NCBI RefSeq assembly: GCF_902713615.1
Contig: NC_052171.1
Span: 1,736,001-1,800,000 of the forward strand
Direction: 5' to 3'
Source of the DNA: Scyliorhinus canicula
Lineage: Eukaryota
DNA: 64,000 nt
Under the pieces are notes generated by a model. It saw only the letters and a list, made by a program, of their open reading frames with translations. It searched no databases and was not told where the DNA came from. How positions within the stretch are numbered: the stretch's first letter is position 1; each line of letters begins with the position of its first letter. The position numbers were made by a program, and so were the translations under genes. Below are positions 5,061 through 54,674 of the stretch, piece after piece.

Positions 5061-5561
5061 GTGGGTGCCCGGGGGAGTAGAATTCTTCCGATCGGGCGTC
5101 CTGTCGAGTAGATGCCGCTGCGTTCTGGCGAGCTTGATGCAGGAACACTGCGCTGAGTTGCGGGCCATGTGGTGACTGCCCGGGAGGTCGTACTCCTCCG
5201 ATGAGCTGTTTGAGTCTGGGGATGCAGCTAGGGCCCGTGGATCGCACGTGGAGGGTGGTGATGAAGATGGCGGCCCCCATGAATCGCACGTGGCCGGCCG
5301 CATGGTGGAGGTTTGCAAAGATGGCGGCCCCCATGGATCGCACATGGCGGGAGGGGGCGGAGCCTGAGCGTAGGCCGCAGCGTTTCGGGCCCCGCGGGCC
5401 TGCTGGTGCTGGGGGCGATGTTTTTGGACTGTTGGGGTTTTGAGGGCTGGGGCCCTTCTGCCACGGCACACTCTAGCATAGTGGCCTTTCTTCCCGCAGC
5501 TGCTGCAGGTCGCGGATCGGGCTGAGCAGTGCTGCCGCGGGTGCTGGCTTTGTCCACAGAA

Positions 5562-6725: not shown

Positions 6726-7762
6726 GGCTGGGGAAGCTGAGTAATTAGCTGGAGCAGCTGAATAGCTTGAGTATTTGACTGGGGGCCCCCATGAATCGCA
6801 CGTGGCCGGCCGCATGGTGGAGGTTTGCCAGGCTTGGGGGGGTCCTCAGGTTGGGGGCCCATGCGGGGTCCGCGAAAAATGAGTTGAGGCTGCAGAAGGA
6901 AACTTCCATCGTGATAGCAGCCTCTACGGTAGTCTCTAAGCCCTGGGCCCCATTTTCTAATAGTCTCTGGCGTACATAGCTAGATCGAAGGCCCGCTACA
7001 AAGACATCCCGCACAGCAAGCTCCCTATGTTCGGCTGCGGTTACAGCCTGGTAATTGCAGTCATTTGAGAGATTGTTCAACTCGCGTGCAAATTCAGCTA
7101 AAGTTTCAGTAGGCCGTTGTCGGCGAGTTGTGAACACATGGTGGGCAAAGACCTCGTTCATGGGCCTAATATACATTTTGTCCAAAATCGCCAGCACAGC
7201 GGTGTAGGAACCGGCTGGATTTAGTTGTGTAGAAATTCTGTGGCTTACCCTCGCTAGGTTGAGCTTTTGTTCCTCCGTAGTTTCAGCGGTGCTGATTTCG
7301 GCCAGGTAGGCCTTAAAACATTTCAGCCAGTGGCAGAAGGTTTCTTTCGCCTCTGCATCCTGCGGATCGCGTTCTGGACGTCCTGGTTTTAGAGCGGATT
7401 CCATGCTTTACTTCGGCAGCTTCTTAAGTGTAATAAATTGATGGAACCATCAATTCAGCGAACACGTGTAGTTGGATTTGAACAGAGGCTTTAATACACT
7501 TACAACAGAGCCAGCCTATTCGTCGTTGAACTTTAGGTGAAATGGCAGACTGGCTCTAAGGCACTGACCTTTATACATGGGTCCCAGGGGGAGGAGTCCT
7601 GGGCGGAGCCAAGGGAGGAGCCCAGTACAACTCTCGCATACACCCAGAGTGACTCCCCCTGGTGGTCAGATAGTGCAACTGCACTTACAATGGGTAGATA
7701 ACGAACATATATACATGCAGTGATATTGGCAACTATATATAGTGTGAATCACATTCACCACA

Positions 7763-24476: not shown

Positions 24477-26093
24477 TCAGCTGACTGTATTATCTTTAAT
24501 GCATTCCATCATTAACGGACCCATGTCTCTTAATATTTTCTGATATTCCATTAGTGCTTGACCATAAGAGTCACGCTGTGTTACAAAGGACCGGAAGAGG
24601 TTTATGGGCTCTGCATACAGAAGCATTTCTGGAATTCCCATTTGCTTAGGAAAAGTCTGATTTCCGATCATAAATCGATGGAGCCGTTTCTCATCCAAGC
24701 ATTTCCCAAGATACTTCAAAATATCTCTGAGCCTATGTTCCAGGTGACACTCGTGCCAGTTTGAATATGGCTGGCTTAACAACAGATGCATAAGGACAGT
24801 CTTAAAAAGATAGGACCCAAGAATGTTCCGCTGGTCTGGAGAGCTACGGAGCTTTTCAGTTAGAAAGGTCAATATTTGAAGGCACTTGAGATGACAACTG
24901 TTTTTGGGAACGCTTTTTGCCATGATTTTTAGAAATCTGTACTCGCAGACAGCACAGGATATATGCCAGTAGGTAGTGGACGGCACTGTATTCTTGGTGT
25001 AATCAGGAAAGCTGGATACGAGATAGACGTCGGAATCCTTCAGCCTCACAGCGGGGAAGGCTTTAATGTAGATGTTTCGTCCTGACTGATACTGGACTTT
25101 TAACCCACAGCAACCGGTAATATTGTGGAAGGAAAGATCAAAATCATACTTGTGACAAACCTTGTTCCAGGACTTTGCGAGTGAAACCCTGAACCATTTG
25201 AGTACCTTCTTGTAGTCTAAGTACCACTCAGAACACACGATGGAAGCCAGGCAATTGGCACGAACATCAGCTTCAAACCTTTTACTGTGAATAAGACAAA
25301 GAACATCTCCTTCAAGTTCGGTACTTTTACACAGGCAGCCCAAGTCAGCACTTCCTGGTGTTACCATAACTATTCGGCCGTAACTTTGTTTATCAGGTGG
25401 GAGGTCACAGCAGCAGATCTCTGGTTTGAAGCAATATCCATCCTGAAGAAAAATTGGAACCAAAATATCGTACACCGAAGGCGTCTTGCAGCCCCATTTC
25501 TCAAACTGACTACCGATGCCGACACAGTCTTCGAGAATCAGCTCAGAGTCCCATTGGCAAATACTCCGACAAGCTTCCAAGAGGTTGTCCACAAAGCTTT
25601 CCACAAATTCGCACGTCTGCATCGGCTCTTGACTTACATTCTGAGTACACGCATCATAAAATTGATCCAGCACATATTTGTCAGGAATATTCAAAATGTT
25701 GTTGTAAATTTTTTGAGGAAATTCATTTTCCTTCTCTCCTTCCTCCTCTTCCTCACTGTTATAGTCCTGCGGTATATGTGGCCACGTGTCCTGTCTCCAC
25801 AGTTCCAAGAACAGAATTGTCACCATCAGGAGAATATTCCAGGTATTCCAATCTATCTGTGTTGAGTTTTCTGCTTTTACAATTGCATTGACCTTACTTT
25901 CCTGCTCAGGATTATACTTCTCATCCACTTCTTTCTGGAGCCGCTCCATCTCCAGCTTATACTTGTCCTCCTGCTCCTTCATCCTTGACTGCACTTCTTC
26001 ACTCTCAACTTCATCACTCAGGAGGCGGGGGTGGTACAAACTTCCCGTGATCACCAGGAGGCACACACTGAAAAGCCCTAATAGTGCTGGCAT
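24477..26093 (-). CDS. ITPRIP: Inositol 1,4,5-trisphosphate receptor-interacting protein family (ITPRIP or ITPRIPL1-like), 538 aa, Mab-21 fold, single coding exon
   Basis: Signal-like LGLFSVCLLVIT..HP, coiled coil, TM LFLELWRQD, EFVESFVDNLLEA, CHLKCLQI, SYLFKTVLMHLLL, LHRFMIGN, AEPINLFRSF, all matching recalled human ITPRIP; polypyrimidine tract and TAG acceptor 1 nt before the ATG. Paralog identity uncertain. Confidence 0.9.
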   Translation of the reverse strand: MPALLGLFSVCLLVITGSLYHPRLLSDEVESEEVQSRMKEQEDKYKLEMERLQKEVDEKYNPEQESKVNAIVKAENSTQIDWNTWNILLMVTILFLELWRQDTWPHIPQDYNSEEEEEGEKENEFPQKIYNNILNIPDKYVLDQFYDACTQNVSQEPMQTCEFVESFVDNLLEACRSICQWDSELILEDCVGIGSQFEKWGCKTPSVYDILVPIFLQDGYCFKPEICCCDLPPDKQSYGRIVMVTPGSADLGCLCKSTELEGDVLCLIHSKRFEADVRANCLASIVCSEWYLDYKKVLKWFRVSLAKSWNKVCHKYDFDLSFHNITGCCGLKVQYQSGRNIYIKAFPAVRLKDSDVYLVSSFPDYTKNTVPSTTYWHISCAVCEYRFLKIMAKSVPKNSCHLKCLQILTFLTEKLRSSPDQRNILGSYLFKTVLMHLLLSQPYSNWHECHLEHRLRDILKYLGKCLDEKRLHRFMIGNQTFPKQMGIPEMLLYAEPINLFRSFVTQRDSYGQALMEYQKILRDMGPLMMECIKDNTVS

Positions 26094-26296
26094 CCTACAA
26101 ACAATAAGCAGAGAAGAGATGTTCAGTAGATGTGTAATTCACAGGGGGAACAGCATTAGTAGATCTATCGGAGGCTGAGCCTCCACTGAGAGATCTTGCA
26201 AGCCTTTTAATAATTCATCCACCTTCACTGATTTGTAATATATACAGCTTCCTTTCCTGTTCTGTACAGCCTCAAGCTGTCTCACAGGGTTTGATG

Positions 26297-34745: not shown

Positions 34746-35597
34746 TTTTATATACTTTCATGACAACATTTTTTAATCAGGCATGAAGAATTGGAATCAT
34801 TCTGTTGTGACAAAAAAGATGGTGTAAAATGTAGTTTAAGCTCTGATAAAGTCAACATCGTATCCTAAAAATAATGGATATTGATGAAATGTTTAAAGAA
34901 ATGTTGGCGAAACAGCCAGAGTAGGGAGGCCTACTCTAAGTCTTGAAAATAGATATAAAAATTACAAAGAAGGACATGAGCTCACTGTTCATAGGTTGGG
35001 GGCAAAGTCAACCCATGAAACTAAAATGATATGAGAGTGGGACTGCCAACATCATAACCTTTCATGTTCCTTGATCATATTCTGGCTTAAAACTGAGGAA
35101 AGGTTTGTCCTGTCCTTCAGACCAAGGCGTATACATTACTCCAATAGAAGTCCCAGACTTCTGTGGGCCACACAGCAACACCATTTAGTCACAGGTACTG
35201 CAATATTGGGGGGGGGGGGGGGGGGGGGATCCTTCCTTACAATTATGGACACAGGTACAAAAACATCTGCATCCCAACAAAACACGCGTCCACTGTTTTC
35301 TTTCTGGCCGTTTTCCCAGCACAATTCAAAGTGGATGTGCTCTGCAAATAAATATGGAAATTGCGTGCTTCGGGACGTGTCCATTGTTCCATCTAATAAA
35401 AGTGTACTTTCCTGGAAATGATGAGTTACATCCGGATTCCCAACTGAATGGACGAGACTGGGGTGGATGCAAAATGGGAAAAATAAGTGCGGCTCACTGG
35501 GGATGGGGTCTGGGAGGGCGGTGTGCCTGGAGTGCGAGGACAGGATGGTTCTCAGGAAGAAAGTTTCAGACTCCCAGCCAGGGAGCGAGGGATGGAG

Positions 35598-36140
35598 GAG
35601 AGCTGGGTGGGGGAGAGCTGGGTGTGGGCGAGCTGGGTGAGCTGGGTGTGCTGGGTGAGCTGGGTGTGCTGGGTGAGCTGGGTGAGCTGGGTGGGGGTGA
35701 GCTGGGTGAGCTGGGTGTGCTGGGTGAGCTGGGTGTGCTGGGTGAGCTGGGTGTGCTGGGTGAGCTGGGTGAGCTGGGTGGGGGTGAGCTGGGTGGGGGA
35801 GAGCTGGGTGGGGGTGAGCTGGGTGGGGGAGAGCTGGGTGAGCTGGGTGGGGGTGAGCTGGGTGGGGGAGAGCTGGGTGGGGGAGAGCTGGGTGGGGGAG
35901 AGGTGGGTGGGGGTGAGCTGGGTGGGGGAGAGGTGGGTGGGGGTGAGCTGGGTGGGGGGTGGGGGAGAGCGGGGTGGGGGGGGTGGGAGGGAGAGCTGGG
36001 TGGGGGTGAGCTGGGTGGGGGGTGGGGGAGAGCGGGGTGGGGGGGTGGGGGAGAGCGGGGTGGGGGGGGTGGGGGAGAGCGGGGTGGGGGGGGTGGGGGA
36101 GAGCGGGGTGGGGGGGGGTGGGAGGGAGAGCGGGGTGGGG
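35598..36140. repeat. G-rich minisatellite (GAGCTGGGT / GAGCTGGGTGGGGG units)
   Basis: Direct inspection. Confidence 0.95.
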
Positions 36141-36191
36141 GGCACTCCGTCGCTGTTGAAGGGTGAGTGAGGGTGCCCTTCACCCCCTTAC

Positions 36192-36360
36192 CTGGTCACT
36201 TGTGGCCCCGAGCCCGCTTCACATGGTGCTTGGGCCTCGCTTGCACGGGCGGCGCTGCTTGTGGTTCAGGCTGCCATGTCTGGGAAGCGCCTCCTCTCCC
36301 TGTGCTCACAGCCTCTGAGGCGGGACAATACCTTCCCCTGTGACGCCACTTGGCCGGGCC
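36192..36360 (-). other. Candidate 5' non-coding exon of the ITPRIP-like gene
   Basis: Strong donor CAG|GTAAGG at 36192/36191 in unique GC-rich sequence; the coding exon begins with an acceptor and needs an upstream exon. Confidence 0.5.
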
Positions 36361-36380
36361 TGGCCAGGCCGGGCTGGCTC

Positions 36381-39300
36381 CGGGCTCCCTGCCCGGGGGC
36401 TCCCTGCCCGGGGGCTCCCTGCCCGGGGGCTCCCTGCCCGGGGGCTCCCTCCCTGCCCGGGGGCTCCCTGCCCGGGGGCTCCCTCCCCGCCCGGGGGCTC
36501 CCTGCCCGCGGGCTCCCTGCCCGGGGGCTCCCTGCCCGGGGGCTCCCTGCCCGGGGGCTCCCTGCCCGGGGGCTCCCTCCCTGCCCGGGGGCTCCCTGCC
36601 CGGGGGCTCCCTGCCCGGGGGCTCCCTGCCCGGGGGCTCCCTCCCTGCCCGGGGGCTCCCTGCCCGGGGGCTCCCTGCCCGGGGGCTCCCTCCCTGCCCG
36701 GGGGCTCCCTCCCTGCCCGGGGGCTCCCTGCCCGGGGGCTCCCTGCCCGGGGGCTCCCTCCCTGCCCGGGGGCTCCCTGCCCGGGGGCTCCCTCCCTGCC
36801 CGGGGGCTCCCTCCCTGCCCGGGGGCTCCCTCCCTGCCCGGGGGCTCCCTCCCTGTCTGGGGGCTCCCTCCCTGCCCGGGGGCTCCCTCCCTGCCCGGGG
36901 GCTCCCTCCCTGCCCGGGGGCTCCCTGCCCGGGGGCTCCCTCCCTGCCCGGGGGCTCCCTGCCCGGGGGCTCCCTCCCTGCCCGGGGGCTCCCTCCCTGC
37001 CCGGGGGCTCCCTCCCTGTCTGGGGGCTCCCTCCCTGTCTGGGGGCTCCCTCCCTGTCTGGGGGCTCCCTCCCTGCCCGGGCGCTCCCTCCCTGCCCGGG
37101 GGCTCCCTCCCTGCCCGGGGGCTCCCTGCCCGGGGGCTCCCTCCCTGCCCGGGGGCTCCCTCCCTGCCCGGGGGCTCCCTCCCTGTCTGGGGGCTCCCTC
37201 CCTGCCCGGGGGCTCCCTCCCTGCCCGGGGGCTCCCTCCCTGCCCGGGGGCTCCCTGCCCGGGGGCTCCCTCCCTGCCCGGGGGCTCCCTCCCTGCCCGG
37301 GGGCTCCCTCCCTGCCCGGGGGCTCCCTCCCTGTCTGGGGGCTCCCTCCCTGCCCGGGGGCTGCCTGCCCGGGGGCTCCCTCCCTGCCTGGGGGCTCCCT
37401 CCCTGCCCGGGGGCTCCCTCCCTGCCCGGGGCTCCCTCCCTGCCCGGGGGCTCCCTCCCTGCCCGGGGGCTCCCTCCCTGCCCGGGGGCTCCCTGCCTGC
37501 CCGGGGGCTCCCTGCCTGCCTGGGGGCTCCCTGCCCGGGGGCTGCCTCCCTGCCCGGGGGCTCCCTGCCCGGGGGCTCCCTCCCTGCCCGGGAGCTCCCT
37601 CCCTGCCCGGGGGCTCCCTGCCTGCCCGGGGGCTCCCTGCTTGGGGGCTCCCTGCCCGGGGGCTCCCTGCCTGCCCGGGGGCTCCCTGCCTGCCCGGGGG
37701 CTCCCTGCCTGCCCGGGGGCTCCCTGCCCGGGGGCTCCCTGCCCGGGGGCTCCCTCCCTGCCCGGGGGCTCCCTGCCTGGGGGCTCCCTCCCTGCCCGGG
37801 GGCTCCCTCCCTGCCCGGGGGCTCCCTGCCTGCCCGGGGGCTCCCTCCCTGCCCGGGGGCTCCCTGCCCGGGGGCTCCCTGTCTGGGGGCTCCCTCCCTG
37901 CCCGGGGGCTCCCTCCCTGTCTGGGGGCTCCCTCCCTGCCCGGGGGCTCCCTCCCTGCCCGGGGGCTCCCTCCCTGTCTGGGGGCTCCCTCCCTGCCCGG
38001 GGGCTCCCTCCCTGCCCGGGGGCTCCCTCCCTGCCCGGGGGCTCCCTCCCTGCCCGGGGGCTCCCTCCCTGCCTGGGGGCTCCCTCCCTGCCCGGGGGCT
38101 CCCTGCCCGGGGGCTCCCTGTCTGGGGGCTCCCTCCCTGCCCGGGGGCTCCCTCCCTGTCTGGGGGCTCCCTCCCTGCCCGGGGGCTCCCTCCCTGCCCG
38201 GGGGCTCCCTCCCTGCCCGGGGGCTCCCTCCCTGCCCGGGGGCTCCCTCCCTGCCCGGGGGCTCCCTCCCTGCCCGGGGGCTCCCTCCCTGCCCGGGGGC
38301 TCCCTGCCCGGGGGCTCCCTCCCTGCCAGGGGGCTCCCTGCCTGCCCGGGGGCTCCCTCCCTGCCCGGGGGCTCCCTCCCTGCCCGGGGGCTCCCTCCCT
38401 GCCCGGGGGCTCCCTGCTTGGGGGCTCCCTGCCTGGGGGCTCCCTCCCTGCCCGGGGGCTCCCTCCCTGCCCGGGGGCTCCCTCCTTGCCCGGGGGCTCC
38501 CTGCCTGCCCGGGGGCTCCCTCCCTGCCCGGGGGCTCCCTCCCTGCCCGGGGGCTCCCTCCCTGCCCGGGGGCTCCCTGCCTGCCTGGGGGCTCCCTGCC
38601 CGGGGGCTCCCTCCCTGCCCGGGGGCTCCCTCCCTGCCCGGGGGCTCCCTGCCTGCCTGGGGGCTCCCTGCCCGGGGGCTCCCTCCCTGCCCGGGGCTCC
38701 CTCCCTGCCCGGGGGCTCCCTCCCTGCCCGGGGGCTCCCTCCCTGCCCGGGGGCTCCCTCCCTGCCCGGGGGCTCCCTCCCTGCCCGGGGGCTCCCTCCC
38801 TGCCCGGGGGCTCCCTGCCTGCCCGGGGGCTCCCTGCCCGGGGGCTCCCTCCCTGCCCGGGGGCTCCCTGCCCGGGGGCTCCCTGCCTGCCCGGGGGCTC
38901 CCTGCCCGGGGGCTCCCTCCCTGCCCGGGGGCTCCCTCCCTGCCCGGGGGCTCCCTGCCTGCCCGGGGGCTCCCTGCCTGCCCGGGGGCTCCCTGCCTGC
39001 CCGGGGGCTCCCTGCCCGGGGGCTCCCTGCCTGCCCGGGGGCTCCCTGCCTGCTTGGGGGCTCCCTGCCCGGGGGCTCCCTGCCTGCCCGGGGGCTCCCT
39101 GCCCGGGGGCTCCCTGCCCCGGGGCTCCCTCCCTGCCCGGGGGCTCCCTGCCCGGGCGCGCCCTGCCTGCCCGGGGGCTCCCTGCCCGGGGGCTCCCTGC
39201 CCGGGGGCTCCCTGCCTGCCCGGGGGCTCCCTGCCCGGGGGCTCCCTGCCCGGGGGCTCCCTGCCCCGGGGCTCCCTCCCTGCCCGGGGGCTCCCTGCCT

Positions 39301-39690
39301 GGGGGCTCCCTGCCCGGGGGCTCCCTGCCCGGGGGCTCCCTGCCCGGGGCTCCCTGCCTGCCCGGGGGCTCCCTGCCTGCTTGGGGGCTCCCTGCCCGGG
39401 GGCTCCCTGCCTGCCCGGGGGCTCCCTCCCTGCCCGGGGGCTCCCTCCCTGCCCGGGGGCTCCCTGCCCGGGGGCTCCCTGCCCGGGGGCTCCCTCCCTG
39501 CCCGGGGGTTCCCTGCCTGCTTGGGGGCTCCCTGCCCGGGGGCTCCCTGCCCGGGGGTTCCCTGCCTGCTTGGGGGCTCCCTGCCCGGGGGCTCCCTGCC
39601 TGCCCGGGGGCTCCCTGCCCGGGGGCTCCCTCCCTGCCCGGGGGCTCCCTGCCCGGGTACACCCTCCCTGCCCGGGTACACCCTCCCTGC
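36381..39690. repeat. 3.3-kb GC-rich minisatellite of interspersed 15-bp and 19-bp units
   Basis: GGGGGCTCCCTGCCC and GGGGGCTCCCTCCCTGCCC; almost no A on the plus strand. Confidence 0.98.
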
Positions 39691-39775
39691 CCAGGGACAC
39701 CCTCCTCCCCCCAGCCGCACTGGAATGGGTGTGAGCAGGATGAGCCAATGCTGCTTCCGGGTTTCCCAGATCGGA

Positions 39776-39881
39776 ATGGCTCACCCTGCGCTGCTGCCGC
39801 TGCTCCTGCTGCTGCTCCTGCTGGCTTACAGCCCCCTCCCCCGGCTCCACACCTTGAAACTCAACCACAGACCCATTATCG
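39776..39881 (+). CDS. GGH: Gamma-glutamyl hydrolase exon 1 (signal peptide to NHRPIIG)
   Basis: MAHPALLPLLLLLLLLAYS...RPIIG, donor G|GTAAGT; in-frame upstream ATGs at 39725 and 39740 are alternatives. Confidence 0.88.
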
Positions 39882-40376
39882 GTAAGTCCGGCTCCGGCCT
39901 GTCCCCAATGAAACTTTCCCTTCCTCCCCTCCCATTCTCCATGAAACTTCCCTCACACTGTCTCAGTCAGCCGCATTTTCTCTCCAAAAGATCTGACCAA
40001 GCCGGAGCAGACTCATCGCCCTGGGCCATTGTAGCCCAATGTGGAATCGTCAGCGACGAGAACCAACTTATTTTAATGCGCTCCTTTGCTCAGGGGGAAA
40101 TACCGCCCAAAACACTACTAGGCCGATTTGAGGAAAATATGTCCTCAACAAAGTTCCCCTATCGGTTTCCGTGATAGCTAATATGCTGTGGCCATCGGAG
40201 CAAGAGCTCTCGGATTTTGGCAGATGGAAAAATAAGACTAATGCGACAGATAGCCTTCCCAAATGGCAAAAACACTGCCCACCCTATAACAAAGTACTAA
40301 ATCTTTAAAACTCTCAAGAGGTGCTTCAGTTGCCCTCTCACACCTGGTTTCTCCATCCTCCTCCAGTGCCTGTTCT

Positions 40377-40568
40377 CCATTGGTACTGCCCTTCCTTGAT
40401 CCATTGGTACTGCCCTTCCTTGATCCATTGGTACTGCCCTTCCTTGATCCATTGGTACTGCCCTTCCTTGATCCATTGGTACTGCCCTTCCTTGATCTAT
40501 TGGTACTGCCCTTCCTTGATCCATTGGTACTGCCCTTCCTTGATCCATCGGTACTGCCCTTCCTTGAT
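40377..40568. repeat. 24-bp tandem repeat, 8 copies
   Basis: CCATTGGTACTGCCCTTCCTTGAT. Confidence 0.97.
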
Positions 40569-40721
40569 TGCACTGTTGCATAAGCAATCCGAGCTAGAAC
40601 ACCCCACTCAAATTTACCTTCCCACCCTTGTATCCGTAGGTCTGGAGTTCCCCAAGAGTCCATGCTGCGCTTTGGTGATATCATCTGCAGACAGAGGGTC
40701 AGCTTTCACACACATGTAGTT

Positions 40722-43865: not shown

Positions 43866-44708
43866 GTATTACTTCATATGTTTTAGTAGCTCTAGCGGCA
43901 GTCATACTGAGCAACAGCACAGAATGCACAGCCCAGTGACCCTCAGGTTGACTCAGACCCACCAACAAGAATACATCAGTTTCCCCTGGGATGCAGTGGT
44001 CAATTTTTGAATATGTGGTGGAACTGGAGATTACATGCAATTATTTTGCTCAATACATCTTATCGCAAGCAAAAGTAAGAGTACCACAATACCCTTCAAT
44101 CATTGAGGGGGAGATCAGTAAGCAGTCCTTGCAAGACAACACAGACTGCATTTGAAGTATTTCATTCATTGTGAAGCATTTTAGAGAGCCTTGAGATTGT
44201 GAAAGTGTAATACATTCGCTTTCTTTCTTTCCTGAAAAGCCGCTCGTGTAAGCTACTGAAGGCTGACTCACACGTCTCTGGATTCGTGGGAATGTGGGTT
44301 TTGCTGACAAGCTGGCATTTTATTGCCCAACCCTCACTGCACTTGAGTAGATGCCTGAGAGCCACCTTGTTGAATCCAACTGACTGGCCATTTCAGAGAG
44401 CAGCTAACAGCCAGTTGTTTGAGGTCGGTAGACACACTGAGACCAGACCGGGTGAGGGAAAGCAAGGTCCATTCCCTGAAGGAATATGGGTTTTCGAGAT
44501 AATCCTGTCATTTCATGGTCACCATTCCTGATACTAATTCCAGATTTCTGACATTAATGGAATTTAAATTGCTCAGTTACCATGGTAACCATGAAATTAA
44601 AGGTGTTTGAATGCATATCCCTGGGTCATATGGCTGGCCTCTGGATTAACTAGTCCAGTAACTAGCACTGTGCTGTCTTAACTCCATATGAAACATGTGA
44701 AGCGATAT

Positions 44709-45657
44709 TGTTGCACGTTTTACTATGGGCGTAAAACGCGTTTATTGGAGTGTATTAACACGCCTCCGAGTTCGACGTGTGCTTAACACTGCTAGGCTCT
44801 GTTCTATGTAATTATTTAGCTCTGGAGTCGCCAGCTGCCGTATAGGCAACGTCACAAGTATTCCAAGGTCAAATTCAAAGTAATAAAGACGATACACCGA
44901 TTAGTAAAGTTCAAACGATCAATATTTATTATACAGTTAATAATAAATACTCATGCACACACTAAGAGACTAAACTACAACTAAACATAAGCAAACAGAA
45001 TACTTATCTAACAGGAACAGGCAAGGTCAGAGAACGAGGCCTTCGTCCTGGTTTTGTCTGCAGCCTTCAGCAAGCGTTCTGGCACTTGGGAGTCTAGCGG
45101 GCTTGGATCGCGTAGCGAGCGTTGAACTTACGGTTTCGGCGGCTGGTGCTCAACGGCTGGAGTCAGGATACCAGGTGTCAGTCGGGGCCGGAGCACAGGT
45201 TTAACAGACCGGACAACACGAGGTCCCTATCTTTTATAGGGGTTCCGTTGTCCTTCCCTCTTCCCGGGCGGGCTCTACCTATTGGATCAATTTCTTATCG
45301 ATACTGGATTAATTCCCCAATGCGAGGGGGTCTCCGTGATGGAGGGGGCGTTTCTTATGTCCTTTTGTTCGGAGGTTTCTGGTGCCTCGATGTCTGGGTC
45401 TTGATTGGAATGTGTCCATTCAGAACCAAATGTATCTTTTGTGTGGGTGTTCAAGTCTGATGGCCTCATTAGCATGCAAAGCGTTTTGCCATTTGCACCT
45501 AGCTAAGGTCTTTTCACCTGAGCCCAAACTGGTTTCTGCTGCTGCAGAATGCAAACTGCTCTTTGCAGACTGCTGTTCTGGCTGAACTGTCTGTTTCTCA
45601 GCAGCCTTCCATTTTAGTTTGGCTCAGTGTCCATTTTGCGTGGCCAGCATGGCTACA
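44709..45657 (-). repeat. 3' LTR
   Basis: TG...CA; minus-strand AATAAA at 44925-44930; identical to the other LTR except G45327 vs A54196 as read by eye. Confidence 0.97.
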
Positions 45658-45667
45658 TTCCCTCCTT
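45658..45667 (-). other. Polypurine tract AAGGAGGGAA
   Basis: Abuts the 3' LTR on the minus strand. Confidence 0.85.
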
Positions 45668-45988
45668 GTGATCCTCACAATCATACTATTGTGAAGGATC
45701 ACCTATGTGCTTTGCCTCCTTGTGTTCTGACCTCTTGCCAGTTCCTGTTCTACTCTGTTCTAAACTATGGGAAGAAGAGAAAATTTTTTTTTAACTAACA
45801 TCTCTACTTGGCCCTATGTCAAAAGGGACATGCATTACTACAATTGGGAACCTCTACCTATCACTATTAACCTTAACCTTAACTTAAACATTTAATCACT
45901 CTAAAATCTTAACCATTCACACCACAACATCACACTTCCCAACTCGGCAGTCGAGTATGGAACAATATAATACATGGCTGAATTTTAT

Positions 45989-46342
45989 TTACAGAGTGTT
46001 GTAATCAGTGAGGGGTTGAGGGGTTTGGTGGAATCCGAAGATGGGGGATTGCACTCTATAGATGGGTGAGGTGCTGGAACGAGAGGCTCTCCTCTTCCAT
46101 TTCCTCAACCTGAGGGTCTGCACTAGGATGGTGAGGATCGCGATCACCAACAGTGATTCGATTATGTAGGACATGGAGTACCACGTCATGAATTTAGTAC
46201 ACCAGGTCTGAACCTCGCTGATCAGAGCTGAGCACTGGGGGTTTGTTGTACTAACATTTACGGTGGGGGTTGTGGGGGAAACGTGTCTTGTTTCCACACA
46301 TATACATATGACATTAAATAGTAATAAGTGGGCTTCCATCAT
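45989..46342 (-). CDS. Proviral small single-pass membrane protein, 117 aa, in the env position
   Basis: First ATG after predicted acceptor at 46445; hydrophobic N-terminus, Thr/Pro stalk with NVS sequon, Cys pair, TM YIIESLLVIAILTILVQTL, RLRKWKRR, terminal YNTL. Confidence 0.65.
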   Translation of the reverse strand: MMEAHLLLFNVICICVETRHVSPTTPTVNVSTTNPQCSALISEVQTWCTKFMTWYSMSYIIESLLVIAILTILVQTLRLRKWKRRASRSSTSPIYRVQSPIFGFHQTPQPLTDYNTL

Positions 46343-47282
46343 TTTGCTGTTCTTCTTCTTTCTCTTCCTTCTTCCTCCGGTATTGACAATCCTGGCTTCG
46401 ACCTCTGTCTCGTCCTTTGAAACCTTTGGGATCAAGCACAGTATCTGTCAATACACAGTTTAAGACCTTTACTTGTTAGTGCATCTGTCTTTCAAAACCC
46501 AATTGACCCTTTAAAATGACTGGCTAAGTCACACCCTGTGACTCCCCTCATTTTTTTTTTTCAAAAGCGAATTTAAAGACCAGCATACACCTAACAATCC
46601 TTCCTTCTGCGAGCCGTCTCGCAGGCTTTGCTGATTTACCATCCGAATGTTCCCGGATGTAAATAGCATGTGGGATGGCGGCCGAAGGGCTACCTAACGT
46701 AAAATGAAAACAAACTTGGAAACAAACATCCGAATGAGTTGCGTATGGGCCGCTACGGGTATGAGTTGGATGGGATCCCCGGGTAGGGCGTGCTGTGCCA
46801 TACCCGAGCTTGGCTGACCAAGGGTTGGTTCTCAGACAGGGCGGGTCCTCAGTGCCGTTTGTCCACTGCCTGAGTAACCTGGAGAAAACGGGTACGAATG
46901 TGTTTACCATGACTTGCAGCCTCTATTTCGCCGAATAGAGGGGCACCTAAAAAAAAAACCAAGGGAGCCAAGATGCTCCAACTGAGGACATCACTGAAGT
47001 TCTCAGAGATATCTGCAGATAAACTATTTGGCGTGTGGCCTTACAACTTTGGAAAAGATCTCCAATCAAACCGAAGTTCTCAGAAGTATCTGCGGACAAA
47101 CTAACGTGTATGTGAGGTGGTCACAATCTTTTCAGCTGAAAAGAAGATGTCCATCCTCCAGCTGAAACATTTACATTCCTGAAAACAAACAAACATAAAA
47201 CGAAGACAAACATACGTGCAGGTTCCATCAGAAAGGACATCGTTTCCCTCAAACGATTCCTATCTTACATCATCTGGACACC

Positions 47283-50200
47283 TCACTTTGATTCTGCCTC
47301 TGTGAACAGGGTCACAAAGGGGTTGCCGTGTCGGGAGTCAGACACCGTGTCGTCCTGCTCTCCCGGATCCCACACCCTTGTGTGGATCAGGCATGCTATT
47401 TTGGAGTTGTGTGACCGGGGGTCACTTTCATCATTGCGGACAAGTCTGTAGGAATTGTCCCTGTGCCATTGTGTAGCGTCGAGTGTGTTGTCGGGGTAGT
47501 CGGGGTCGGGTGGTGGTTCTGGGTTTTTAAGGTAAGTGACTTCCATGGGGTCACTGGAGTCGGGGTCGTAGTTGGTGCAGTGTGGGCTGTATGGCTGTGT
47601 GGTGTCGCTGTCCTCAGAGTCAGTGTCTGTCCTACTGTCTCTGCTGTGGCAGCTTGTGGGCGTGTCGGGGCGTGGTCTGTAGTGGTCTGTGGGCGGAGTC
47701 GTGGGCGAGTCCGTTGATGAACTGGTCTGTGAGGGGGATGGTGGAAAAGTGTTTCTGGTGGGCGGGGTGAAGTGTTCTGCTGCATCCAGCAGGACATGGT
47801 GAGCATGGTTGGCCTGTGTTCCATATGCCTTTAACTGGTTTATATGGAACCACGCGGTCTTCCCATTAGGATATTTGATCCTGTATACGGAGGGGCTAAT
47901 TTTGTCCGAAATTGAGTAGGGACCGGAATATTTTGGAGCCAAAAAACTGCTGGGGTTATAAACAGATAACATTACCTGTTGCCCAACCTGGAATTCTGTG
48001 GTGTGTACGGTCTTATTGAAACAGGCAGTCCGTTGCTGTCGGCGTTTCCCTAGCTGGACTGCGGCTGCGAGCTGTGCAGACCTCACAGTCTCAACTAGAT
48101 CTTTAACTGCCTTTTCATGTGTGAGGGCCGTCACTTCGGGGCTTGTCATGTCCAGTCCTAAAAGGAATTCTGTACCTTTCATAGGGCGTCCGGTCATGAG
48201 TGTATGTGGTGTGTATCCTGTAGATGTGGAGACAGTGTTCCTTATGAACATAAGTGCAAAGGGGAGCACTGAATCCCATGTGGAATTGTTCTCTTGAACC
48301 ATTTTTCTGAGGGTAGTTTTTAGGGTCCGATTCATGCGCTCCACAATCCCGCTGGACTGTGGATGATACGCAATGTGGAAGTTTTGTTTGATGCCGAATA
48401 TTGTCAGGACGTTCCTCATGACCCGTCCTGTAAAGTGAGATCCCTGGTCCGAATCGATACTTCGGGGTAAACCCCATCTCGTGAAGATGTGGTGGGTCAG
48501 GATCTTTGCAGCTGTCTTAGCTGTGTTTGTTCGTGAGGGAAATGCCTCTACCCACTTGGTAAAGGTATCTATCACCACCAGAACGTATTTATAGCCATTC
48601 CTGCAAGGGGGCAATGGACCTATAAAGTCGATCTGGAGGTTTGTCCAAGGGCCGTTAACTGGGCGAGTATGCCGAAGTTGTGCTTTCTTAGAATACCTCT
48701 CCGGGTTATTCTGAGCACAAATCAGGCAATTCTCTATGTAGTGCGTTACATCATTCCTGAGATTAGGCCACCAACAGAGTTGCCTGAGGTGCCTCGTTGT
48801 TGCATCAATTCCCTGATGCCCGTGTCCGTCATGGAACAAGGCAATCATCTGATTCCTGTCCTGCTGTGGGACCACATAAAGTTGGTCCTTAATGATCACA
48901 CCCTCATGTGTGGTCAGTGCGTGTTTAAAGTGCTCGTAAGCAGGCACAAAGTTTCCCTTGAAAACCTCCCTGAGGTCTCCGTCCTGTTTTTGTGCTGCCA
49001 CGAGATCTTTAATATCAGTCTGTGAGACTTGGACTGCGCTCACAGGGGCGCTAGCTGGTGCGCTAGCTGGGGGGGTCCATAAGTGTCCTCTCCTGGAACC
49101 TGCTTTAGCCAATGCGTCGGCTTTTACATTCCCAGGGGGTGATGACCTATGGTGGCTTCGAACTTTTATAATGCCGAAGGTCCTGTCCTTCGCTTTTGCT
49201 AAAATATGCTGGAGTAGAGGGGCTGATGGAAGGGGTTTTCCGTCTGCGGAGACAAAACCTCGTGTCCTCCACAGGGGCAGAAAATCGGTTAAACTGTTAC
49301 AGACATATAAGCTGTCTGAATATATGTCTGCTGGGCTGGGGAAAGAATCGGGGTGGTCCACTATGTACGCTATGGCTGCTAGCTCTGCTGCCTGCGCGCC
49401 TAAGTGACCTGGTAACTTAAGAGCTATCTCTTCGAGAGCGCGCCCCTGCGCGTCCTCTACATAGATGCCGCATCCTGTGATACGCTCACCATTTAAAACT
49501 GTGGAGGAACCGTCTACATAAATCCTCAAGGGTCCACACGTGTCTGTGGGCTGGGGGCTTTGTTTCGGGTTCCCTATCTTCCTGGGGGGTGTTTTTGCTA
49601 AAAAGGGTCCTGTGTTATGCAGGGGAACTACAATTTCACAGTCATGGGGCTGTCCGGGGTATTGGAGGTTGTCGGCTAAGTATGTGTGTGTGCGTGTCCG
49701 TTTCACTGTAATGTCCCGTCCTTGTAAAAGTAGGGTCCACCTAGCTGCCCTAATCTGGCTAACTGAACCGTCCTTCAGTCGACCGTCTAGTAGTAGCTGT
49801 GTGGGTGTGTGTTCGGTCAGAATAGTAATGGGGTTGAGTCCGGTGATGTATGAGAAATACTGTACTGCCCAGAAGACAGCAAGGAGGTGCCTCTCACAGG
49901 CTGAAAATCCTTGTTCTACTGGGTCTAACAGTCGGGAGGCATAAGCCACTGGTCTTAGCTGCTCGTGCCGTTCCTGAAGCAACACGGCCGAGAGGGTCAG
50001 ATCGGTGCTCGCTACCTCTATTGCGTACGGTGAAAGTTGGTCGGGGACTAGCAGCGCGGGTGCTGCACTAAGGGCTCGTTTCAACTCTTCCACAGCGCCT
50101 GTATGCTGCGGAAGCCATTCCCAGGGGGCTCCTTTCTTAAGGAGGTCTGAAAGTGGGGCGGCTTTTGTCGCGAATCCGTCGATGTGGTTCCGACAATAGC

Positions 50201-51509
50201 CAACCAGTCCTAAAAACGACCGGAGGGCTGATACATTCTGGGGAAGGGGCAATTTGACAATCGAATCAATTCTTTTGAATTCGATCTCGCGTTTGCCTTG
50301 CGTGATGACTGTTCCCAAATACATCACTTTACTTTCCAATATCTGGGCCTTTTTCGGGTTAACTTTACAGCCAATTTCAGTTAAGAGTTCTAGGAGTTCG
50401 GCCAGAAGCGAAATGTGCTCTGCCTTTGTGTCTGTCTGCAGTAGTAGGTCGTCTACATACTGTACCAGACAATCGGGTCGGGAAAATTTTTCTAATCCAC
50501 TTGCCAGCTGTCGGTGGAAAATGGAGGGTGAATTGTGGAATCCTTGTGGGAGGCATGTCCACGTGTACTGCTGTGTTTTAAAAGTGAATGCGAATTTGTA
50601 TTGGCACGCTTTTGCCAATGGTATTGACCAGAATCCATTACTGATGTCCAATACCGTGAAGTACTTGGCGTTGAGACCCTGCTTGAGCATGGTCTCGGGA
50701 CTAGTAGCTACCGTTGGGGCTACTGCGGGGGTTACTTTGTTGAGTTCCCGATAATCGATGGTCAGACGCCATGATCCATCGGGCTTCCTCACTGGCCAAA
50801 TAGGGGTATTGTTGGTGGAGGCTACCGTTCTCAGTACACCTTGGTCCAACAAGCTGCCTATAACTTTTTCTATTTCCACCTCTGCCTCGAGGGGAAATCT
50901 ATACTGTTTTTGCGGTCGGGGGTCCTGTCCGGTAACATGAACTTGTCCAGTCATTCTACCACAGTCATGACGGTGACTTGCAAATGCTGTCCTGTGTTTG
51001 TTTAGTAGGGCCTTAATTTGTCTGTCGGTGTGGAGTGTAGTCAGGTCGAATGAGTACTCTCCCACTGCGCTAATCCGATTAGCGTAGTCTCCTACTGTGA
51101 GGGTGGCTGGGGCTCTGTCTGATCTCGCCATTCGCCAGACACACTGGTTCACTGGGTCGAACGACAAGCTATGAGCGTTCATAAAATCTATCCCCAGGAT
51201 GTGCTCTGCTGTCCGGGGAAGATTTACTAAAACTACGGGGTGCCTTGTGCTAATGTTCCCTAGCTGGATCGCTACGGGTGCTGTGATATGTCCCTGCTGC
51301 GAGTGTCCGGTGAACCCGCTAAGTGTGATGGTGGAGGTGGTCGGCCACGTGTCTATGTGTGCCGTGGTTGTGGAGTTAATGGTGGTGCGGGATCCTCCTG
51401 TGTCCCACAGTAACTCTATGGGCTTCCCTTTGACTTTTGCCGTGACTACGGGCCTCCCTGATGAGTCCCATAGTGTGTCACAGACCCAAGTGGGGGAGCC
51501 CGAACACCG
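47283..51509 (-). CDS. pol: Pro-Pol (protease, RT, tether/RNase H-like, RNase H, integrase), 1408 aa, in frame with gag
   Basis: Translated by hand upstream of the listed ORF with no stop: LLWDTGGS and ILGIDFM; RT LPQGFHNSP and YVDD; RNase H YVDGSS, AELAA, YSDS, GNVKADALAK; IN HHCC, D-D35-E and GPY. Confidence 0.95.
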   Translation of the reverse strand, partial: RCSGSPTWVCDTLWDSSGRPVVTAKVKGKPIELLWDTGGSRTTINSTTTAHIDTWPTTSTITLSGFTGHSQQGHITAPVAIQLGNISTRHPVVLVNLPRTAEHILGIDFMNAHSLSFDPVNQCVWRMARSDRAPATLTVGDYANRISAVGEYSFDLTTLHTDRQIKALLNKHRTAFASHRHDCGRMTGQVHVTGQDPRPQKQYRFPLEAEVEIEKVIGSLLDQGVLRTVASTNNTPIWPVRKPDGSWRLTIDYRELNKVTPAVAPTVATSPETMLKQGLNAKYFTVLDISNGFWSIPLAKACQYKFAFTFKTQQYTWTCLPQGFHNSPSIFHRQLASGLEKFSRPDCLVQYVDDLLLQTDTKAEHISLLAELLELLTEIGCKVNPKKAQILESKVMYLGTVITQGKREIEFKRIDSIVKLPLPQNVSALRSFLGLVGYCRNHIDGFATKAAPLSDLLKKGAPWEWLPQHTGAVEELKRALSAAPALLVPDQLSPYAIEVASTDLTLSAVLLQERHEQLRPVAYASRLLDPVEQGFSACERHLLAVFWAVQYFSYITGLNPITILTEHTPTQLLLDGRLKDGSVSQIRAARWTLLLQGRDITVKRTRTHTYLADNLQYPGQPHDCEIVVPLHNTGPFLAKTPPRKIGNPKQSPQPTDTCGPLRIYVDGSSTVLNGERITGCGIYVEDAQGRALEEIALKLPGHLGAQAAELAAIAYIVDHPDSFPSPADIYSDSLYVCNSLTDFLPLWRTRGFVSADGKPLPSAPLLQHILAKAKDRTFGIIKVRSHHRSSPPGNVKADALAKAGSRRGHLWTPPASAPASAPVSAVQVSQTDIKDLVAAQKQDGDLREVFKGNFVPAYEHFKHALTTHEGVIIKDQLYVVPQQDRNQMIALFHDGHGHQGIDATTRHLRQLCWWPNLRNDVTHYIENCLICAQNNPERYSKKAQLRHTRPVNGPWTNLQIDFIGPLPPCRNGYKYVLVVIDTFTKWVEAFPSRTNTAKTAAKILTHHIFTRWGLPRSIDSDQGSHFTGRVMRNVLTIFGIKQNFHIAYHPQSSGIVERMNRTLKTTLRKMVQENNSTWDSVLPFALMFIRNTVSTSTGYTPHTLMTGRPMKGTEFLLGLDMTSPEVTALTHEKAVKDLVETVRSAQLAAAVQLGKRRQQRTACFNKTVHTTEFQVGQQVMLSVYNPSSFLAPKYSGPYSISDKISPSVYRIKYPNGKTAWFHINQLKAYGTQANHAHHVLLDAAEHFTPPTRNTFPPSPSQTSSSTDSPTTPPTDHYRPRPDTPTSCHSRDSRTDTDSEDSDTTQPYSPHCTNYDPDSSDPMEVTYLKNPEPPPDPDYPDNTLDATQWHRDNSYRLVRNDESDPRSHNSKIACLIHTRVWDPGEQDDTVSDSRHGNPFVTLFTEAESK

Positions 51510-53258
51510 TCAGTTCGTCTCGTCCACATTGGTGGGTCCTGACTGTACTGCTACATTGTGGATTGGTTTTGCTTTGTTGCGGTTCAGAGTGCCTGTCTGC
51601 TGGCCTCTCTGAGATCGCTGGGGTGCATTACACTCTTTTGCCCAATGCCCTAACTGTCCACAGTTATAGCATTCCTGTCCTTTCTGTTGAGGGCTGCTCT
51701 TGCCTTCATTTACCCATGCGGGCTTCTGGTGCTCTCTGACTGCTTGGATATCTGCAGCAGCCTGAGCCTCTTCTGGGGATCTAACCTTTGCTTTTGCCTG
51801 AAGCGATTGCTCCCAAGCGCGGGACAATCTTTTGAGGACCCATTTTTCGTTATGGGCCTCTTCTGAGGGGTCGTAATTATTGCAAGCGCTCTGTCCTGCT
51901 TCTGTTGCGTGTGAGATAATTGTGCGCGTCCACTTAACCATGTTTTCGCGGGTTAAATGCGCTCTATCTAGCTGTCCGAAAACTGCGCTGAAATGAATCC
52001 ACAGCCTTCCTGCGAATGCTGTGGGGTGTTCGGATCTCTTCTGCCTGCACTTATTTAAGCCTTCTACGGGGTCACCTCTATTGTACCCGATGGCATCTAA
52101 AATGGCAGTGTGCATCTCCTCTAGGCTGCCTCCTGCCACGTTCTGTGGGTCGGGGAGGGCTGCCACTACACTCTGGTCTAAGCTCAGCACGGTGAGCTTA
52201 ACCTGCTCTCTCTCATCCAGGCCGTACATGGTAGCCTGCTGTTTTACTTTAGCAAAGAACTGGTGGGGGTCTGCGGTGGGGAGGAACGGAGTGATCTTTT
52301 CACAAGCGTCCCTTAGCTGGGTTACTGTTAAAGGGGTGGTGTAAGTTATGTCTGGGGCGCCTTCTGATTCGGCTTTCCTCTGTGTGGTTACGGGATTCAT
52401 GGGTGCGGTTATGGTCTGAGCTGTGGGGGGTTGGGGTGCCTGTCGTTTCTGCTGAGCTGCTGGCGCACATGTTCCCTGAACATAACGCTGCGCTGTCTCG
52501 CTTAATTCCTGCCAATCTGGGGCATTTTCCCCATCTAACTGAGCTCCAAAGGTGCTTTGGAAGCCATTCTGCACCGAAAGCAGAGATTGCAGTTCCGCAA
52601 TCTGTTTCCTGCATTTCGCGTGGTCAACTGTGCTTTGTCTTTGTTCGGTCGTTGCAGCGTGGAGTGCTCTCAAAGCTGCTTTGAGATCGGAGCATTGCCT
52701 CTGCAATGCCTCCACCTGCTTTTCCGATTCCTGTCTTATCAGAACGGCACGTTGCACGTCCTGATAGGCTTTCTCATACTGGGTCTGGGAACTGTTCAGA
52801 TGAGCTAGACAAGACTGGTGAGCCCTCTTGGCATCATCCACCTCTCTACCCTTCTCTGCCAACTTCCCTTTTAATTCCAGGTTTTCTTTCTCGATGTCCC
52901 TGACATCGACCTTACTCATTCGGTTCCTTTCCTCTAAATCTGCCCGGAGCGTCCTGATGACCTCCTCTGCGCCTCGCAACTGTGCCAAGCAGGACACAAT
53001 CGCCATCGGCTTGCGTGCTTTACTTAAACTCTTTTTGTGTATTTGAGAGAGGTTCTCCCACCAAGTATGACCTATACTTCCGGGACCTGTCTCCTCATTT
53101 GCACAAAACTCTTTCCAAAGGGGCCATCCCTTTCCCTGCAGATATTTGCGGAGTTCCAGCTCCCACGTGGGACACTGGCCTACTCTGCTACTGCTGCTGG
53201 TCGCTGCGACCACAAACTTTGCTGGATCCATCAGACGTTCCATTGCCTGCATGGCCAT
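51510..53258 (-). CDS. gag: Gag, 582 aa, with long N-proximal coiled coil and one CCHC knuckle
   Basis: First ATG at 53258; CYNCGQLGHWAKEC; ends in TGA. Confidence 0.92.
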   Translation of the reverse strand: MAMQAMERLMDPAKFVVAATSSSSRVGQCPTWELELRKYLQGKGWPLWKEFCANEETGPGSIGHTWWENLSQIHKKSLSKARKPMAIVSCLAQLRGAEEVIRTLRADLEERNRMSKVDVRDIEKENLELKGKLAEKGREVDDAKRAHQSCLAHLNSSQTQYEKAYQDVQRAVLIRQESEKQVEALQRQCSDLKAALRALHAATTEQRQSTVDHAKCRKQIAELQSLLSVQNGFQSTFGAQLDGENAPDWQELSETAQRYVQGTCAPAAQQKRQAPQPPTAQTITAPMNPVTTQRKAESEGAPDITYTTPLTVTQLRDACEKITPFLPTADPHQFFAKVKQQATMYGLDEREQVKLTVLSLDQSVVAALPDPQNVAGGSLEEMHTAILDAIGYNRGDPVEGLNKCRQKRSEHPTAFAGRLWIHFSAVFGQLDRAHLTRENMVKWTRTIISHATEAGQSACNNYDPSEEAHNEKWVLKRLSRAWEQSLQAKAKVRSPEEAQAAADIQAVREHQKPAWVNEGKSSPQQKGQECYNCGQLGHWAKECNAPQRSQRGQQTGTLNRNKAKPIHNVAVQSGPTNVDETN

Positions 53259-53554
53259 TTCCTCTGACTCTCTTTTTATAATTTGGAACAGGGGGTTGCT
53301 GGGGTGGTGTTTCGAGAAACGGGTACGGCTTGCGCTATGTTCCGTTAACAAAACTACCGAAAGTTTGTCGCAACAAAAAGCTTTCAGTTTTACCTTACAG
53401 CCCTGTTAGTACGCATGCACTAAAACACACTTCCGAATTTCGCTTATTATTTTGAACACCTTGAATACTTGTGATCTCTTTCTTTCTCTGCAATTTGGAG
53501 TTCTAATTCAAATTTCAGGGTCCTGGACACTGTGGTGTTTCCACTTACAACAGG

Positions 53555-53572
53555 GTCCCGGCGGAGTCGCCA
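53555..53572 (-). other. Primer-binding site for tRNA-Arg(UCU)
   Basis: TGGCGACTCCGCCGGGAC is complementary to the recalled vertebrate tRNA-Arg-TCT 3' end GUCCCGGCGGAGUCGCCA; 5 nt from the LTR. Confidence 0.8.
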
Positions 53573-53577
53573 CTAAA

Positions 53578-54526
53578 TGTTGCACGTTTTACTATGGGCG
53601 TAAAACGCGTTTATTGGAGTGTATTAACACGCCTCCGAGTTCGACGTGTGCTTAACACTGCTAGGCTCTGTTCTATGTAATTATTTAGCTCTGGAGTCGC
53701 CAGCTGCCGTATAGGCAACGTCACAAGTATTCCAAGGTCAAATTCAAAGTAATAAAGACGATACACCGATTAGTAAAGTTCAAACGATCAATATTTATTA
53801 TACAGTTAATAATAAATACTCATGCACACACTAAGAGACTAAACTACAACTAAACATAAGCAAACAGAATACTTATCTAACAGGAACAGGCAAGGTCAGA
53901 GAACGAGGCCTTCGTCCTGGTTTTGTCTGCAGCCTTCAGCAAGCGTTCTGGCACTTGGGAGTCTAGCGGGCTTGGATCGCGTAGCGAGCGTTGAACTTAC
54001 GGTTTCGGCGGCTGGTGCTCAACGGCTGGAGTCAGGATACCAGGTGTCAGTCGGGGCCGGAGCACAGGTTTAACAGACCGGACAACACGAGGTCCCTATC
54101 TTTTATAGGGGTTCCGTTGTCCTTCCCTCTTCCCGGGCGGGCTCTACCTATTGGATCAATTTCTTATCGATACTGGATTAATTCCCCAATGCGAGAGGGT
54201 CTCCGTGATGGAGGGGGCGTTTCTTATGTCCTTTTGTTCGGAGGTTTCTGGTGCCTCGATGTCTGGGTCTTGATTGGAATGTGTCCATTCAGAACCAAAT
54301 GTATCTTTTGTGTGGGTGTTCAAGTCTGATGGCCTCATTAGCATGCAAAGCGTTTTGCCATTTGCACCTAGCTAAGGTCTTTTCACCTGAGCCCAAACTG
54401 GTTTCTGCTGCTGCAGAATGCAAACTGCTCTTTGCAGACTGCTGTTCTGGCTGAACTGTCTGTTTCTCAGCAGCCTTCCATTTTAGTTTGGCTCAGTGTC
54501 CATTTTGCGTGGCCAGCATGGCTACA
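53578..54526 (-). repeat. 5' LTR with promoter
   Basis: TATAAAA on minus at 54101-54107, CCAAT about 45 nt upstream. Confidence 0.97.
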
Positions 54527-54674
54527 ATATGCCAGAAAGAGCTTGTGCCTTCAGAAGGTGGATAAAATTGTTGGGAGGAAAAATAAAAACCACATAGTAA
54601 TGGTACAATATTTGGAGATTTTTACTACAGGGAGCCAATGACTCAGGCTGCTGTAATAAAGGAAAATTATGAAA

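Follow-up and report, generated by a model that had tools for sequence, protein, structure and literature searches.

A candidate type II UGA-CGG readthrough signal between gag and pol in an env-less endogenous retrovirus of the shark Scyliorhinus canicula

The 64,000-nucleotide stretch of Scyliorhinus canicula contig NC_052171.1 analysed here (RefSeq assembly GCF_902713615.1, forward-strand positions 1,736,001 to 1,800,000; hereafter the window, with coordinates counted from its first letter) contains a young, env-less endogenous retrovirus (ERV) of this shark, encoded on the minus strand, in which a single in-frame UGA separates gag from pro-pol. By analogy with characterized viral signals, the best reading of this junction, and one that we regard as very likely, is that programmed readthrough at a type II UGA-CGG signal makes the Gag-Pro-Pol polyprotein. 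UGA-C (type II) signals occur in alphaviruses and in leaky human genes. At the shark junction most ribosomes would terminate at the UGA and release Gag, while a few percent would decode it by a near-cognate tRNA and continue into Gag-Pro-Pol, and the readthrough rate would set how much structural protein is made relative to enzymes. The event would be stimulated by the weak UGA-CGG context together with a predicted 82-nt stem-loop that begins 8 nt downstream and would lie at the ribosome's mRNA entry channel. A first-pass annotation of the sequence had proposed programmed, alphavirus-type UGA readthrough and had called it unusual for a retrovirus; the mechanism survives as the best explanation and the likeness to type II signals holds, but the claim of unusualness does not, as in-frame UGA junctions have precedents in SSSV, ZFERV, RMEV and XtERV-S.

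The arrangement of the reading frames provides the foundation for this interpretation. On the minus strand the gag-side frame (53405-51510) is open up to the TGA at 51512-51510, with its first ATG at 53258, and the pro-pol frame (51509-47283) begins directly after the TGA and stays open for 1408 codons, which confirms the first-pass observation that the gag stop is in frame with protease and pol and is followed by no further stop. The same annotation had seen no in-frame ATG ahead of the protease motif, and this too is borne out, as the catalytic Asp of the protease DTG is codon 36 past the stop and no in-frame ATG occurs until codon 110 (51182), after the protease active site. The lone stop sits between the gag zinc knuckle and the protease, and the two other frames at the junction are closed by several stops. 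Both open reading frames (ORFs) are otherwise intact and the two long terminal repeats (LTRs) show a single mismatch over 949 sites, which makes it unlikely that one random nonsense mutation fell exactly at the junction. Frameshifting was rejected, since the gag and pol frames are already aligned and no slippery heptamer of the tested pattern occurs within 51360-51900. The codons 3' of the TGA are CGG TGT TCG GGC TCC CCC, with CGG directly after the stop as had been noted. Type II readthrough is defined by UGACGG or UGACUA (PMC13517186), and the element carries UGACGG.

Type II signals also carry an extended stem-loop 7-12 nt past the stop, and folding predicts one here. The first-pass annotation had proposed a shorter helix, and its arms (51502-51494 and 51458-51449) are indeed present and able to pair over 9 bp around a 1-nt bulge, at a pair probability of 0.84-0.90 when the fold is at most 75 nt long. 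The 73-nt fold containing this helix is within chance, however (z -0.86; 43 of 200 shuffles as good), and in folds of 90, 100, 120, 150 and 200 nt its pair probability is 0.0. From 90 nt upward the 5' arm 51501-51494 pairs instead with 51420-51428, with the four outer G-C pairs at 0.92-1.0, while the 3' arm of the shorter helix joins the inner hairpin; forcing the shorter helix costs 7.4 kcal/mol in the 100-nt fold. In these models the true 3' partner of the 5' arm is probably 51428-51420 and not 51458-51449, so that a stem is retained while its first-pass pairing was probably wrong. The 90 nt past the stop have the lowest folding energy (-37.5 kcal/mol) among 196 gag-pol windows, and 4 of 2000 synonymous-codon shuffles were as stable; the 103-nt fold has a z of -2.71, with 0 of 200 dinucleotide shuffles as good. 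As the test site was fixed in advance, these window statistics are fair, not overwhelming, support. Based on the folding models and on the viral signals described below, we lean towards the view that the 82-nt stem-loop stimulates readthrough.

Other copies and relatives of the element bear on whether the stop is a feature of the family. Contigs 85-100% identical to the element cover it in each of four sequencing runs, in hundreds to thousands per run, which identifies a multi-copy family, and at least half of the element's words are present in 20 of 24 listed sequencing runs (one organism, 9 studies). A 629-nt contig of run X3 spans 51205-51833 without a gap at a depth of 128.8 and carries four differences (51355, 51356, 51564, 51790), all outside 51357-51563, so the stop, its context and both candidate stems are unchanged there. 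An X11 contig likewise crosses the junction without gaps, with 4 of its 7 differences among those listed. The read comparison listed 40 of its 809 differences and 15 of its 28 joints, and no entry listed alters or removes the stop. The Gag relatives found are four models from Scyliorhinus torazame alone (72-78% identical); three of them (72-76% identity) end at the same column as the TGA, with the last 15 residues diverged, and the fourth goes out of frame earlier. The first-pass annotation had suggested looking for UGA-CGG in other copies, and the unchanged X3 contig is in line with it, while the shared Gag ends of S. torazame agree with the position of the stop. Judging from these sequences, the stop is not a private lesion of one copy. 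Farther out, the relative P0282 (55% identity) keeps residues from codon 9 past the stop and has no Met ahead of DTG, a Mustelus model contains reverse transcriptase (RT) pieces at 67% identity, and no fused shark Gag-Pol is present among the best 120 of 165 matches (774-2464 aa).

Several observations weigh against this reading. Beyond the differences and joints listed, minor sense-codon or spliced forms may exist among the copies. A coelacanth (Latimeria) model of the same group, P0007, has a Gag-like piece fused to protease and shows Gln-Gly-Cys at the columns of stop-Arg-Cys, which makes a fused Gag-Pol lineage behind it possible; the model also has changes in conserved motifs, and it may instead represent an old member of an amber-using family in which the Gln reflects a UAG-GG junction. 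A sense codon in other copies, which the first-pass annotation had named as evidence against its own proposal, is absent from the differences listed; the Gln at this column belongs to the coelacanth model. The 90-nt window ranks only sixth of 196 by z-score, five others being as unusual. P0282 differs in the residues under the 3' arm and the inner hairpin, so the exact 82-nt fold may not be conserved. Finally, no homologous junction DNA for covariation was found in viral contigs, and the metagenome contigs searched gave 66 retrovirus-like loci, all distant (25-46% identity).

The alternative that survives best is a variant of readthrough itself, in which the UGA-C context alone or some other structure, such as the shorter helix or a pseudoknot, drives the event and the 82-nt fold is incidental. 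We take this seriously as a minority possibility. It draws on the dominance of the shorter helix in folds up to 75 nt, on the sixth place by z, on the dissimilar arm residues of P0282 and on PSIV, in which a predicted stem-loop is present yet not required; pseudoknots lie outside what the folding program used can show. The energetic penalty of the shorter helix in the 100-nt fold speaks against it, as does the start of the 82-nt fold at the canonical +12, and in both VEEV and Colorado tick fever coltivirus (CTFV) UGACGG without structure gives less than 1% readthrough (PMC13517186).

Routes that bypass the stop are improbable. Pol could be made from a spliced RNA in the manner of foamy viruses, the stop could be spliced out, or translation could begin at a non-AUG codon ahead of the protease. 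The element's place in a basal retrovirus grade is compatible with such routes, its best PDB match is, narrowly, a foamy Pol (241.8 bits; Ty3 scores 239.1 and MLV 238.6), near-cognate ACG, ATA and CTG occur at codons 23, 31 and 34 past the stop, and strong splice acceptors exist elsewhere in the element. Against this, pol has no ATG of its own, the best acceptor-like sites in 51405-51700 rank 107th and 108th of 745 AGs by a crude score, and residues conserved with P0282 start upstream of the near-cognate codons. A zinc knuckle, absent from foamy-like Gags (PMC5210030), is present in the Gag of this element. A spliced pol RNA had also been named in the first-pass annotation as grounds for abandoning readthrough, and none of the 15 of 28 joints listed removes the stop.

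Slightly less probable still is that active elements encode Gag-Pol as one ORF and that the TGA arose by a nonsense change, of CGA or TGG for instance, and was spread by complementation. The Gln of coelacanth P0007 would suit such a history, as would the apparent lack of env in the family and the seven published lokiretrovirus consensus sequences annotated as fused smc-gag-pol (PMC7947760). The stop is nevertheless kept in the main X3 contig, the Gag end is identical in three of four S. torazame models, the best 120 of 165 matches include no fused shark Gag-Pol, and context and structure fit a designed signal. Recoding of the UGA as selenocysteine, to which the codon and its 3' stem-loop might point, is very improbable, as the UGA lies in a linker outside the active site and no Rfam family, the selenocysteine insertion sequence (SECIS) among them, matches 44700-54530 or 51200-51800 at E up to 1.

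The features of the element around the candidate junction are collected in Table 1. The primer binding site, which we take to resemble tRNA-Arg, lies 5 nt past the LTR end (53573-53577), a longer gap than the usual 0-2 nt. Gag has one CCHC zinc knuckle about 54 codons ahead of the stop and an N-terminal half that by eye is coiled-coil-like, and an ESM Atlas search returned only generic retrotransposon Gag look-alikes. Pol ends in a tail of about 170 residues rich in Pro, Ser, Thr and Asp past the integrase (47283-47800), which the frog and coelacanth relatives do not have. No env was found in the 1.6 kb between pol and the 3' LTR, where no coding-strand ORF exceeds 152 aa and no env Pfam match occurs. 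The 117-aa ORF in this region has a hydrophobic N-terminus, then a short segment with Cys, a single strong hydrophobic stretch and a basic tail, and is closely preceded by an AG acceptor-like site at 46445. The ORF received no Pfam assignment and nothing at 0.9 or above in the ESM Atlas, and it may encode a small accessory protein of the membrane or represent an env remnant. Of the six top-scoring splice-acceptor-like sites in the element, four (47179, 46947, 46879, 46694) cluster just past pol, in 46690-47300, which suggests spliced RNAs for 3' accessory ORFs.

Table 1. Positions of the retroviral element and its gag-pol junction within the window.
Feature	Coordinates	Strand	Basis or remark
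5' LTR, 949 nt, TG...CA	53578..54526	-	1 mismatch to 3' LTR
3' LTR, 949 nt	44709..45657	-	1/949 sites unlike 5' LTR
Target site duplication ATAT, 4 nt	54527-54530 and 44705-44708		flanks both LTRs
Primer binding site, 18 nt, 5 nt past 5' LTR	53555..53572	-	sequence
gag, 582 codons + TGA	51510..53258	-	open frame; PF00098 E 1.1e-07
UGA CGG readthrough hexanucleotide (candidate; type II context), then UGU UCG	51507..51512	-	sequence; class definition PMC13517186
Spacer, stop to structure, 8 nt	51502..51509	-	folding
Predicted extended stem-loop, 82 nt, start +12	51420..51501	-	folding prediction only
Basal helix of the 82-nt stem-loop	51501-51494 with 51420-51428	-	8 bp + bulge, predicted
Inner helices of the 82-nt stem-loop	51483-51477/51440-51446 and 51472-51463/51447-51456	-	predicted
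pro-pol frame, 1408 codons: aspartic protease, RT, tether RNase H, RNase H, integrase, low-complexity tail	47283..51509	-	domain matches
Small ORF, 117 aa from ATG, in env position	45989..46342	-	one hydrophobic stretch, basic tail
Polypurine tract	45658..45670	-	directly ahead of 3' LTR

Elsewhere in the window a 553-aa host ORF (24477-26138, minus strand) carries a Mab-21 C-terminal domain (E 3.6e-09) and represents a cGAS/Mab-21-family exon, and a second retroelement piece with protease and RT (3793-7400, minus strand) adjoins a tandem array of about 26 copies of a 45-nt unit (5432-6847). A GC-rich minisatellite of 15/19-nt units extends for about 4 kb within 35500-40200 and leaves every one of the six phases open, and an array of 24-nt units lies at 40328-40615. 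Many copies of a short interspersed repeat, presumably akin to the shark HE1-like SINE, are spread throughout the window.

The domain order protease-RT-tether-RNase H-integrase, with dual RNase H and an RT that stands apart from gypsy, places the element with retroviruses and not with Ty3/gypsy, and for want of env it is an env-less ERV. In an RT-tether tree of 50 rows, hand-picked from about 340 proteins (P0185 was excluded for short coverage) and replacing a 101-row quick-mode tree, the element and its two nearest relatives group at 99/98 within an unresolved basal retrovirus grade. It falls outside both the clade holding WEHV1 and the MLV-type rows (100/99) and the branch of loki-like and gypsy rows (100/100). 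Membership of the gamma/epsilonretroviruses was rejected (forced grouping, p-AU 1e-77), as was the initial guess of a lokiretrovirus (p-AU 1e-5), both groups having been chosen with the tree already in view; the reference rows are called loki on our reading of a Labeo rohita host and of a YXDD-motif match to Loki-Bsp. A loki-type env, related to paramyxovirus fusion protein, was not found between pol and the 3' LTR. Foamy and foamy-like viruses (clade Tu), whose Gag is without a Cys-His box and whose pol is expressed independently of gag (PMC5210030), were rejected on features, since the element has a zinc knuckle and its pol has no ATG of its own. By exclusion, and in a tree without named SnRV, ERV-L or foamy rows, an SnRV-like/class III home (clade Huo, PMC6001957) is plausible.

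Among full-length relatives of Pol the best are proteins of frogs and of the coelacanth that carry the label 'protein NYNRIN-like' and are 39-44% identical over residues 1-900. ERVs of Pyxicephalus, Rhinophrynus, Aquarana, Latimeria and Xenopus have the same domain order and are the nearest named tree rows, although their union with the shark element in one clade is weakly supported (85/35). Two frog models, P0003 and P0285, show a weak immunoglobulin-like domain past pol (E 0.01-0.06), perhaps from an env-like or captured gene. The shark family is basal and apparently undescribed.

The lokiretroviruses provide an independent set of gag-pol junctions, taken from supplementary data set S1 of Wang and Han 2021 (PMC7947760), which covers 24 consensus families; among those examined, seven have a separate gag. 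Six of these seven separately annotated genes end in TGA-CTA, with G as the next base in three and A in three, and the seventh ends in TAA. As judged by eye, five of the six are in frame with pol, two running directly into the published Pol start and three by homology, one of the latter with an ATG two codons past the stop; the sixth has a break in its published frame. An eighth consensus has the same motif in the same setting, and seven other families are annotated as fused. A term search of the main text of PMC7947760 found no mention of stop codon, readthrough or frameshift, PMC9040795 mentions none of these terms either, and the available parts of PMC12440569 and PMC8922424 do not mention readthrough in this sense. 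Lokiretroviruses share with the shark element the dual RNase H, the 'NYNRIN-like' NCBI label on relatives, a coiled-coil gag region and, in six of seven separately annotated gags, UGA-C at the gag end, but the context is CUA in place of CGG. They form a separate clade, the shark element has no fusion-protein-like env, and its RT shares 38-39% identity with loki-like proteins, compared with 54-58% for the ERVs of amphibians and the coelacanth. We advance only tentatively, and with considerable doubt, that UGA-C readthrough is widespread and possibly ancestral at the base of the retroviruses (loki UGA-CUA(G), shark UGA-CGG), the gammaretroviral amber codon plus pseudoknot being a later replacement. 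Together with the loki junctions, the shark element nonetheless raises the question of which recoding mode the earliest retroviruses used, and a readthrough junction would explain how annotation pipelines come to miss or truncate pol in such families.

Comparison with known systems separates what is familiar in this junction from what is new. MoMLV and WDSV have, like the shark element, an in-frame stop between the nucleocapsid knuckle and the protease DTG and a structure at +12. Gamma- and epsilonretroviruses use UAG-G, however, with a compact pseudoknot in MoMLV, whereas the shark element uses UGA-CGG and lies outside that clade. Knuckle, stop and protease are likewise in frame in 27 of the 66 retrovirus-like metagenome loci (many of them near-duplicates), where the stop is TAG in 25, TGA-GG in two and TGA-C in none; the two TGA-GG junctions (L038:1040 and L055:1065) belong to epsilon-like metagenome ERVs without a strong 3' fold. 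UGA itself is found at the gag-pol junctions of SSSV (UGAAGA), ZFERV (UGACGA, one base off the shark context) and RMEV (UGAAGU) (PMC13517186) and, as an in-frame TGA between gag and pol, in XtERV-S (PMC8278194), so the codon alone is not new. Readthrough is presumed in these four, and the available text describes neither a downstream structure nor a type II signal for them; SSSV, ZFERV and RMEV are distantly epsilon-related, and XtERV-S is class III, with no zinc knuckle described in that text. According to the available part of PMC13517186, a 2026 review, cis-elements outside gammaretroviruses are unclear, and no retrovirus is listed there with a complete type II signal. Our search of the open-access literature (PMC, bioRxiv) likewise found no complete UGA-CGG plus extended stem-loop in a retrovirus and no paper on the shark family or on lokiretrovirus readthrough, either of which subscription papers, Repbase or supplements might hold. 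UGA in retroviruses and the mechanism class are thus already known, and the new part would be a full alphavirus/coltivirus-type signal in a retrovirus.

That signal has its counterparts outside the retroviruses. Readthrough spacers span 7-12 nt, and the plant-virus motif is stop-CGx-xxx-xxG (PMC3159437); its +9 G is present in the shark element, while the -1 base is C in the shark and A in the plant motif. At VEEV nsP3-nsP4 and in CTFV segment 9, UGA CGG is followed, as in the shark element, by an 8-nt spacer and a stem-loop at +12, of 126 nt and 78 nt respectively against a predicted 82 nt, and both viruses require the structure (PMC13517186). The CTFV signal, UGA CGG UGU UGG, is identical to that of the shark over its first 10 nt (UGA CGG UGU U), and its basal helix has 17 bp where that of the shark has 8 bp plus a bulge. 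The shark element thus offers a short candidate signal that resembles the coltivirus one both in sequence, over the first 10 nt, and in where its predicted structure lies and how large it is; unlike the signals of CTFV and VEEV, it joins a retroviral gag to pol. By this analogy we infer that the shark signal works like those of CTFV and VEEV while being unrelated to them by descent, which, if true, would clearly exemplify convergence on a single solution at the level of the ribosome.

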